Shown here: positions 40,517 through 52,950 of the stretch, piece by piece
How positions within the stretch are numbered: the first letter of the stretch is position 1
Layout: the number at the start of each line of letters is the position of its first letter
NCBI GenBank assembly: GCA_963677925.2
Contig: CAXXYH010000004.1
Span: 1,952,001-2,016,000 of the forward strand
Origin: Spirochaetia bacterium
Lineage (GTDB): Bacteria > Spirochaetota > Spirochaetia > UBA9216
DNA: 64,000 nucleotides
Direction: 5' to 3'
Notes under the pieces: model-generated
Told to the model about the DNA's origin: nothing
What the model saw: only the letters and a program-made list of their open reading frames with translations
The model's database searches: none
Program-made: the position numbers and the translations under genes

Positions 40517-40590
40517 GGGCGGCTAGCTCAGTTGGTTAGAGCACTTGCTCGACACGCAAGGGGTCGTTGGTTCGAATCCAATGTCGCCCA
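40517..40590 (+). tRNA. tRNA-Val(GAC), CCA not encoded
   Basis: Acceptor GGGCGGC/GTCGCCC-A, D arm GCTC/GAGC, anticodon arm CTTGC-TCGACAC-GCAAG, T arm GTTGG-TTCGAAT-CCAAT. Confidence 0.95.
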
Positions 40591-51575: not shown

Positions 51576-51634
51576 ATCTCTTATTCTTAATCTTAGTTGC
51601 AGATATGTCAATCATAATACACTGTGTGATATTC

Positions 51635-52270
51635 TTAAAAGGGAACCGGTGAACTGAACTCTATTTTTTCCCCTGTCTCAGGATGATAAAAAGCAATCTC
51701 CGAAGCATGAAGCAGCAGCCGTTCTCCCGGTTTACGGCTGCCGTAAAGCCGATCTCCGCAGATGGGATGTCCAAGACCAAGCGGGTGGGCTGAATGGACC
51801 CTGAGCTGATGAGTTCTTCCGGTAAGCGGTGTAAACTCAATTCTCGTTTTTGTATCTTCGATAGATAATTTTTTCCAAAGTGTGATGCCTTTTCTTCCAT
51901 TTACAGGATCATGAACCTGGTATGGACGGTTATCAGGATCCAGTCTGAAGTAAAGTTCGATCCGGCCTTCATCACCTTTAATCAGGCCGTCAAGAACTGC
52001 AATATATCTTTTAGATACAGTTCTCTGCTGAAACTGTATTGAGAGGGCTCGGAGAGCCTCTGTGGTCTTTGCATAAACCATTACTCCGCTGGTGTCCATA
52101 TCCAGCCTGTGCGCAGCCGGGTTATTAACTATTCCCGGAAACTTTTCTTTAAGTATGCTTACAACGCAGTACTGTTTGTCCTCCCCCCTGCCGGGAACCG
52201 ACAGCAGGCCCTCTGGTTTATTGATAACTATAATACTCTCATCATCATAAATAATAAAATCATCTTTCAT
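51635..52270 (-). CDS. RluA family pseudouridine synthase
   Basis: NKPEGLLSVPG, HRLDMDTSG, TGRTHQLRVH..H..GLG.PI.GD.LYG, LHA; start re-called to ATG 52270 (ATGA overlap). Confidence 0.93.
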   Translation of the reverse strand: MKDDFIIYDDESIIVINKPEGLLSVPGRGEDKQYCVVSILKEKFPGIVNNPAAHRLDMDTSGVMVYAKTTEALRALSIQFQQRTVSKRYIAVLDGLIKGDEGRIELYFRLDPDNRPYQVHDPVNGRKGITLWKKLSIEDTKTRIEFTPLTGRTHQLRVHSAHPLGLGHPICGDRLYGSRKPGERLLLHASEIAFYHPETGEKIEFSSPVPF

Positions 52271-52950
52271 AAAACCATCCCGCTGCCCTGCAGCATAAAA
52301 CTCATAAGCGGTCCGCATTTTTCTTCACAGGGTGTATAAAATTCCCCATGTTTACGCTTTCCCGACTTATTTTCGGGGCCGTAAAAAAATTCGATCAAAT
52401 CAAGCGGTTTCAGATTATATAAAACCGCTGAATTAAGCAGTTTCGGTGCACAGCAGTCTCCTGTTCCCGACGGTATTCCCTTCCTGTCTTTAAAAAGTTC
52501 AAACAGTGACGTTGTATCACCTCTAAAGTTTCTAATATTGTACATTGCATGTATATCATGCATAAACTCTCTGGAAAGTTCCCTGCGCTTATTTTCAAGA
52601 CTTACCCGTTCCGGAGTGCCGGGGCTCATAGAGTTTATTTCTTTGCCCAGATTTTTTATCTCCGGATCCCGCTGCTCTACCATCAATGTGAATTCTTCAG
52701 TATCCAGAATAGGGTTTACCCATCCCGGAACATTCCAGTGTCCGTTGTACTGTCCGCTGAATGCTTTAAGCACTTTATCAGCACCATCAGCTGTTCTGCA
52801 CAGGAGCACTCCGAACATCTGACCGCCTCCGGTTCCAAACAGATAATCCGTGGATAACGCCGTATTGGGGATCTCACTCTCAAAATCAATTCTTTTAAAT
52901 GATTCCAGCTTATTTATTAGTTCTACAGCATACTCTTTTGCATTCTGCAT
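52267..52950 (-). CDS. Stand-alone TrcP-type cytidine-deaminase-like domain
   Basis: G.MFGVL, L.AFSG, PGWV.P, PSGTGDCCAPKLL, EF..G, R.HG.FY.PC..KC.P...ML; start re-called to ATG 52950. Confidence 0.7.
   Translation of the reverse strand: MQNAKEYAVELINKLESFKRIDFESEIPNTALSTDYLFGTGGGQMFGVLLCRTADGADKVLKAFSGQYNGHWNVPGWVNPILDTEEFTLMVEQRDPEIKNLGKEINSMSPGTPERVSLENKRRELSREFMHDIHAMYNIRNFRGDTTSLFELFKDRKGIPSGTGDCCAPKLLNSAVLYNLKPLDLIEFFYGPENKSGKRKHGEFYTPCEEKCGPLMSFMLQGSGMVL

Follow-up and report, generated by a model that had tools for sequence, protein, structure and literature searches.

A stand-alone TrcP-type deaminase gene overlapping an RluA-family synthase gene in a Spirochaetia bacterium, a candidate two-gene C-to-pseudouridine RNA editor

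A stretch of 64,000 nucleotides from a Spirochaetia bacterium (the window, by which we mean the whole stretch of DNA analyzed) carries two overlapping genes on its minus strand, one for a stand-alone protein homologous to the deaminase domain of the tRNA editor TrcP and one for an RluA-family pseudouridine synthase. Judging from the sequences, we put the probability that these translationally coupled genes together form a natural two-gene TrcP-type C-to-pseudouridine RNA editor at roughly 60%. The comparisons described below establish the homology to TrcP, show that the catalytic residues and the gene pair are both conserved, and reveal purifying selection. The split arrangement is common in uncultured bacteria, and is widespread rather than unique to this genome. 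The features of the locus are as follows.

52267..52950, minus strand: gene predicted to encode a stand-alone zinc cytidine deaminase of the TrcP type (P0001, 227 aa; coordinates include the stop; from the ORF and its translation)
52315..52455, minus strand: catalytic core codons C166 (52453-52455), E187 (52390-52392), C208 (52327-52329) and C212 (52315-52317)
52546..52701, minus strand: predicted short hairpin of helices (residues 84-135) where TrcP has its long helical domain (from AlphaFold helices, pI and motif spacing)
52267..52270, minus strand: ATGA stop/start overlap, pointing to translational coupling (from the sequence; identical 4-nt overlap in the sister genome)
51635..52270, minus strand: RluA-family pseudouridine synthase gene (211 aa, P0400, stop included)

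TrcP (VC_A0104) of Vibrio cholerae converts C32 of tRNA-Tyr to pseudouridine (Kimura et al. 2022, PMC9553926). In a single chain it combines a deaminase domain (residues 1-114 and 250-339), a long helical domain (115-249) and an RluA-type synthase domain. Its zinc cysteines are C282, C324 and C328, its catalytic glutamate is E303, and R507 belongs to the synthase; C282, E303, C324 and C328 were each reported to be needed for editing or zinc binding (PMC9553926). The protein has a single substrate in V. cholerae, and a 2025 paper describes trcP as "so far reported as Vibrio-specific" (PMC12588516). No other bacterial enzyme that edits tRNA from C to U is known to have been characterized.

The initial annotation had linked the 227-aa product to the N-terminal deaminase domain of TrcP through four motifs, all of which are present: MFGVL at residue 45, AFSG at 63, GDCCAPKLL at 164 and FY.PC..KC at 204-212. 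The proposed homology was borne out by BLASTP. As a stand-in for V. cholerae TrcP we used P0398, a 559-aa "RluA family" protein of Vibrio campbellii from a plasmid collection, which we take to be a TrcP ortholog because of its genus, its architecture and its catalytic residue numbers: C, E, C, C and R stand at exactly the positions given in the TrcP paper (C282, E303, C324, C328 and R507). P0001 aligned with this protein in two blocks, residues 41-86 against 65-112 (E = 4e-8) and residues 116-222 against 230-338 (E = 1e-21), with C166, E187, C208 and C212 falling onto C282, E303, C324 and C328. All four are conserved without exception across 61 aligned homologs, accounting for four of the eight invariant columns. 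The locus thus resembles TrcP in having a homologous deaminase with C-x20-E-x20-C-x3-C spacing, a homologous synthase and the order deaminase-then-synthase; it differs in that the two activities would reside on two polypeptides rather than one.

The AlphaFold model of P0001 has a pLDDT of 97.2 and a pTM of 0.92. No Pfam, NCBIfam or PADLOC model matches the protein, and Foldseek returned no PDB match for the model at E<=1e-3; a wide VIA-align structure search listed only matches to the hairpin (residues 82-137). The only whole-domain structural match was blasticidin S deaminase (PDB 2z3g), at 14% identity. P0001 has no sequence-level match to this enzyme or to the cytidine deaminase fold, from which it differs further by the inserted helical hairpin and by the placement of the catalytic glutamate on a different element, as described for TrcP (PMC9553926). 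A profile search of the PDB with one homolog alignment (A1) hit the designed beta-trefoil "ThreeFoil" (3pg0_A, E = 6.4e-6) over profile positions 61-99, a span of 39 residues that probably reflects a short common motif; the other rows of this search were chance matches only. The consensus of most homologs (alignments A1 and A3) begins with a G.C..C...H segment, which forms two short strands (residues 13-27) in the model of a fused homolog. P0001 and its sister protein lack this segment, and the in-frame sequence upstream of the P0001 N-terminus (about 52900-52950) overlaps a permease gene.

The insert within the deaminase also departs from TrcP. In the AlphaFold model it is a two-helix hairpin (helices 84-106 and 113-135), and 101 residues separate the FSG motif from the first zinc cysteine, versus 193 in the Vibrio ortholog. 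By alignment, some 43 residues of P0001 replace the 135-residue helical domain of TrcP, making the insert about 90-92 residues shorter. The helical segment of 35-40 aa given in the initial annotation was thus roughly right, and the shortened domain is confirmed by both spacing and model. The 52-residue hairpin is acidic (pI 5.3, with 8 Lys and Arg versus 11 Asp and Glu), whereas residues 115-249 of the Vibrio ortholog have a pI of 9.3. P0001 does not possess the three long helices with a basic tRNA-binding patch that characterize TrcP, where mutation of this patch abolished both editing and tRNA binding (PMC9553926). Because a short acidic hairpin cannot provide a basic tether of the TrcP type, tRNA recognition would have to differ from that of TrcP. 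The short insert does not go with the split in particular: short spacing was found in 88 proteins of fused length and 145 of stand-alone length, and long and short inserts each occur at both lengths. These counts come from the 297 of 399 fetched proteins that could be scored, a set biased by the queries used.

At the junction, the deaminase ORF runs on the minus strand from an ATG at 52950 to a TGA at 52267-52269, which separates it from the synthase; the latter lies in a different frame. The plus-strand tcat at 52267-52270 reads as ATGA on the minus strand, so that the deaminase stop overlaps an in-frame synthase ATG, just as the earlier reading of the sequence had it. An alternative start at an upstream ATG (52318) would give a synthase of 227 aa. 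We prefer the ATGA start (52270), although the evidence is weak, because the conserved N-terminus of the synthase begins a few codons from the deaminase stop in most split relatives, and because the two substitutions that separate this genome from its sister within the 48-nt overlap are both non-synonymous in the extension frame; one of them is synonymous in the deaminase frame. A terminator-like hairpin directly before the ATGA was considered and rejected, its stability being no better than that of shuffled sequences (z = -0.03). Upstream on the same strand lie genes for a GntR regulator, an ABC ATPase and an ABC-2 permease, followed by the deaminase/synthase pair. A consensus scan, the only method applied here, placed a promoter-like site at 54958-54931 and found no terminator-like site between permease and deaminase.

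The downstream gene had been annotated as an RluA-type synthase akin to that of TrcP, and we agree. Its product (P0002/P0400) matches PF00849 (4.2e-29, 102 bits against a cut-off of 26.8), and P0002 is 42% identical to the TrcP synthase domain of P0398 (2e-52), with an equivalent of R507. The HRLD aspartate and the HQLR arginine motifs are both present, and are invariant in 29 partner proteins. The TIGR00005 score of 179.3 bits is below the cut-off of 192.7. Like E. coli RluA, the tRNA pseudouridine-32 and 23S rRNA pseudouridine-746 synthase, P0002 has the family catalytic motifs and spans the RluA equivalog model NF007543 (positions 15-219 of 219); unlike RluA, it scores too low for an RluA equivalog (144.9 bits; cut-off 286), and its close homologs track genomes that have the deaminase. 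Synthase homologs of at least 54% identity were found in 13 of 60 relatives, 11 of which also have the deaminase; of the remaining two, one has its synthase at a contig start and one (G003) has no deaminase upstream. The best homologs in the other 47 relatives reach at most 49%. Since close homologs are thus almost confined to deaminase-bearing genomes among the relatives searched, the synthase looks like a dedicated partner of the deaminase and probably does not serve as the housekeeping RluA. The synthase of G003 (contig C44, locus L163, 930-1628) is 54-57% identical to P0400 and has no deaminase-like ORF in the 930 nt upstream; in this genome, which is 86% complete, the search gave no deaminase match.

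The clean stop/start overlap had been taken to indicate a real fission rather than a sequencing frameshift, and we consider the split to be a real, conserved gene arrangement on the evidence of sequence comparisons. A sister genome with 93% identity (MAG Spirochaetia, OZ223267.1; also G001) has the same two ORFs joined by the same ATGA, and a second genus of the same family (g4) has the split in five genomes, at approximately 52% identity. Over 1.8 kb, a contig from another study shows 120 substitutions, and its only indels, at 51621 and 51624, fall outside both genes. An identical contig (X1) was left out of the independent support, as it may be the source of the window itself. Relative to the sister genome, pN/pS is 0.19 for the deaminase and 0.10 for the synthase, indicating purifying selection. 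The opposing reading, that of a fused gene in decay after a frameshift or of a faulty assembly, could draw on fused relatives within the family, such as a third genus (g5, genome G005) with an open frame of 524 aa, and on the RluA frame, which remains open for 17 codons upstream of the ATGA. Fused genes occur in other families as well. Against it stand the identical junction in the sister genome, the contig from the other study with its intact genes, the pN/pS values and the presence of split pairs in 55 of 91 loci examined; its probability is close to negligible. A scan of genome contigs that used a single protein as query, for which an alignment would have been the stronger choice, yielded one locus.

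A survey of fused and split homologs, proposed in the initial annotation, was carried out and showed that the split is not confined to this genome. Of 585 metagenome loci, the best 80 include 48 that are split with a synthase immediately downstream (overlapping in three of the 48) and 7 that are fused, making the split the commonest arrangement in the closest relatives. Seventeen of the 80 have no downstream synthase despite at least 400 nt of flank, three of them having one upstream instead, and 8 could not be classed. In 54 split loci the junction is a 4-nt overlap in 27, 8-nt in 6, 11-nt in 4 and 1-nt in 3, counts that take the candidate start nearest the stop and so favor short distances. 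An annotated example occurs in Desulfobaculum bizertense (NZ_CP090010.1), where a "hypothetical protein" precedes an "RluA family" protein. Across the phylum, 21 of 301 sampled Spirochaetota genomes have the deaminase domain, 19 of them in frames of fused length.

Protein searches gave a similar breadth. A word-index search at E<=1e-3 matched 475 proteins of 124-398 aa and 242 of at least 399 aa, and an exhaustive all-against-all library gave 1174 cluster representatives at the same threshold. Coincidence cannot account for the features seen here. Of the best 150 representatives, 51 have PF00849, 38 of at least 280 aa lack it, and 61 are shorter than 280 aa; the last group was left out of the PF00849 scan, being too short for both domains. 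Thus, 99 of these 150 either lack a synthase domain or have no room for one. Members of the deaminase family are mostly annotated as "hypothetical protein". Fused proteins with the short hairpin, about 430-500 aa long and annotated as "RluA family pseudouridine synthase", also occur in Spirochaetia. One example, P0123, is 51% identical to P0001 across the whole deaminase, short hairpin included, but is a single chain with a linker of about 20 residues where P0001 and its synthase are two chains. The history of the arrangement requires three fission or fusion changes on a careful tree that leaves out locus L013 and four on a quick tree; grouping all 12 fused rows on one side of a branch gives a tree of higher likelihood, which the AU test does not reject (p-AU 0.62). 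All TrcP homologs are said to hold both halves (PMC9553926). Our literature search found no description of split or stand-alone TrcP-type deaminases, although the BLAST list in Supplementary Data 7 of that paper may contain some.

The tRNA genes offer a range of possible substrates. The bacterium's own genome has 46 of them, 27 with C32. tRNA-Tyr(GTA) is one of these (loop CTGTAAA), which merely permits editing at this site. Eight tRNAs have a CTNNAAA loop (Tyr, Phe, Cys, Trp, Leu-CAA, Leu-TAA, Ser-CGA and Ser-TGA), and Ser-GGA alone has TTNNAAA. Because deamination would convert the eight loops to the RluA consensus UUXXAAA (PMC7822408), we regard these tRNAs as candidate substrates at most. 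Three relatives without the deaminase have a 100% identical gene for tRNA-Tyr, which is therefore uninformative on the substrate; covariation gave no substrate signal. A search for RNA runs containing the locus listed none.

A separate observation concerns tRNA-Val(GAC), the sole such gene, at 40517-40590 of the window on the plus strand. It has C33 in place of the near-universal U33 (loop TCGACAC) and is the only one of the 46 tRNAs without U33; a literature search found no account of this feature. We considered C33 as an editing target and rejected it, as C33 occurs in 27 of 30 Spirochaetia loci, 19 of them in genomes without the deaminase, which marks it as a lineage trait unlinked to the deaminase/synthase pair.

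By analogy with TrcP, the chemistry, the edited position and the substrate of the proposed editor can be sketched as follows. In the 227-aa protein, C166, C208 and C212 would hold a zinc ion and E187 would act as the proton shuttle for deaminating an anticodon-loop cytidine of a tRNA, at position 32 if homology is a guide, to uridine. Translated from the ATG within the overlap, the RluA-family enzyme of 211 aa would then isomerize this uridine to pseudouridine, and the 4-nt overlap would lead to coupled, near-equimolar synthesis of the two proteins. The two-subunit editor proposed in the initial annotation would further require the two proteins to associate. Several results weaken this picture. 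When the purified N- and C-terminal halves of V. cholerae TrcP were mixed, C-to-U conversion took place but pseudouridine was not formed, which the authors took to mean that coupling of the synthase to the N-terminal half is required (PMC9553926). The basic patch essential in TrcP is missing, and what is left is an acidic hairpin. For the fused homolog P0123 no fixed interface is predicted: its model has confident domains, but the pTM is 0.59 and linker residues 256-263 have a pLDDT below 50. To these can be added the lack of a substrate signal and the absence of a synthase from the fetched flanks of 14 of the 80 loci. Either the natural pair would have an interface that AlphaFold misses in the fused form, or its synthase would bind tRNA alone, as RluA does.

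The latter possibility leads to a reading with the same chemistry and no complex, in which two independent enzymes share an operon and the synthase reads the anticodon loop by itself, like E. coli RluA, once U32 has been made. We think this rather unlikely. The disordered linker and low pTM of P0123 fit it, as do the nearly complete coverage of the RluA model by P0002, the unaided recognition of a loop consensus by RluA (PMC7822408), the loci where the deaminase has no neighboring synthase and the reversed gene order in L113-L115. It is opposed by the failure of the TrcP C-terminal domain, once separated, to act on U32 of tRNA-Tyr, even when the N-terminal half was supplied in trans (PMC9553926), by the 4-nt overlap as the commonest junction among split loci and by the co-occurrence of this synthase type with the deaminase. 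A target other than that of TrcP is possible, if doubtful: the pair might act elsewhere in the anticodon loop, on several tRNAs at once or on an rRNA loop, for example the 23S site of RluA. The domain that tethers tRNA-Tyr in TrcP is missing from P0001, the genome offers eight CUNNAAA loops and one UUNNAAA loop, and P0002 is the most RluA-like of the five PF00849 genes (144.9 bits versus 68.4 for the other short one), so it may also do housekeeping work. Homology nonetheless points to position 32, TrcP acts on a single substrate in V. cholerae (PMC12588516), and we found no direct evidence for a different target.

Deamination of a free nucleoside or a nucleoside antibiotic by the 227-aa protein, with the adjacent synthase being incidental, would accord with blasticidin S deaminase as the only whole-domain structural match and with the position of the gene after a GntR regulator and ABC-transporter genes. 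However, the deaminase is fused to a synthase in hundreds of proteins and adjoins one in 48 of the 80 loci, and it shares sequence homology with TrcP, an experimentally demonstrated tRNA deaminase. The transporter neighborhood is not conserved in most of genus g4, G008 being the exception, and for this reason no functional link to the GntR and ABC genes is drawn. We regard this reading as very improbable and retain that of a two-gene TrcP-type editor.

If such pairs are active, tRNA base editing is far more widespread than reported, nature has solved what the artificially separated halves of TrcP could not, and a self-contained RNA cytidine deaminase of 227 aa becomes available for study, possibly as a tool. 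More tentatively, stand-alone TrcP-type deaminases in general, whether their partner is coupled, elsewhere or absent, might be a widespread and undescribed group of RNA C-to-U editors that recognize their targets without a tether, the present one converting C32 to pseudouridine in several of the eight CUNNAAA tRNAs rather than in tRNA-Tyr alone. Were this so, tRNA base editing would be a common trait of several phyla, Spirochaetota and Thermodesulfobacteriota among them, instead of a speciality of Vibrio.

The wider family shows further arrangements. In the 14 of 80 loci noted above (L063, L064, L069, L071, L072, L077 and others), the deaminase has no RluA-type gene in the fetched flank, so the pairing is not obligatory; these deaminases may stop at C-to-U editing, or their partner may be encoded elsewhere in the genome. 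That of L063 sits between a two-component system and a MatE transporter. A small clade (L107, L113, L114 and L115) has the reversed order, with the synthase upstream of the deaminase. The deaminase domain also occurs in other fusions: in P0139 (477 aa) it is joined to GDSL-lipase-like Pfam families instead of a synthase, and P0351 (1113 aa) combines it with a synthase and DUF3160.
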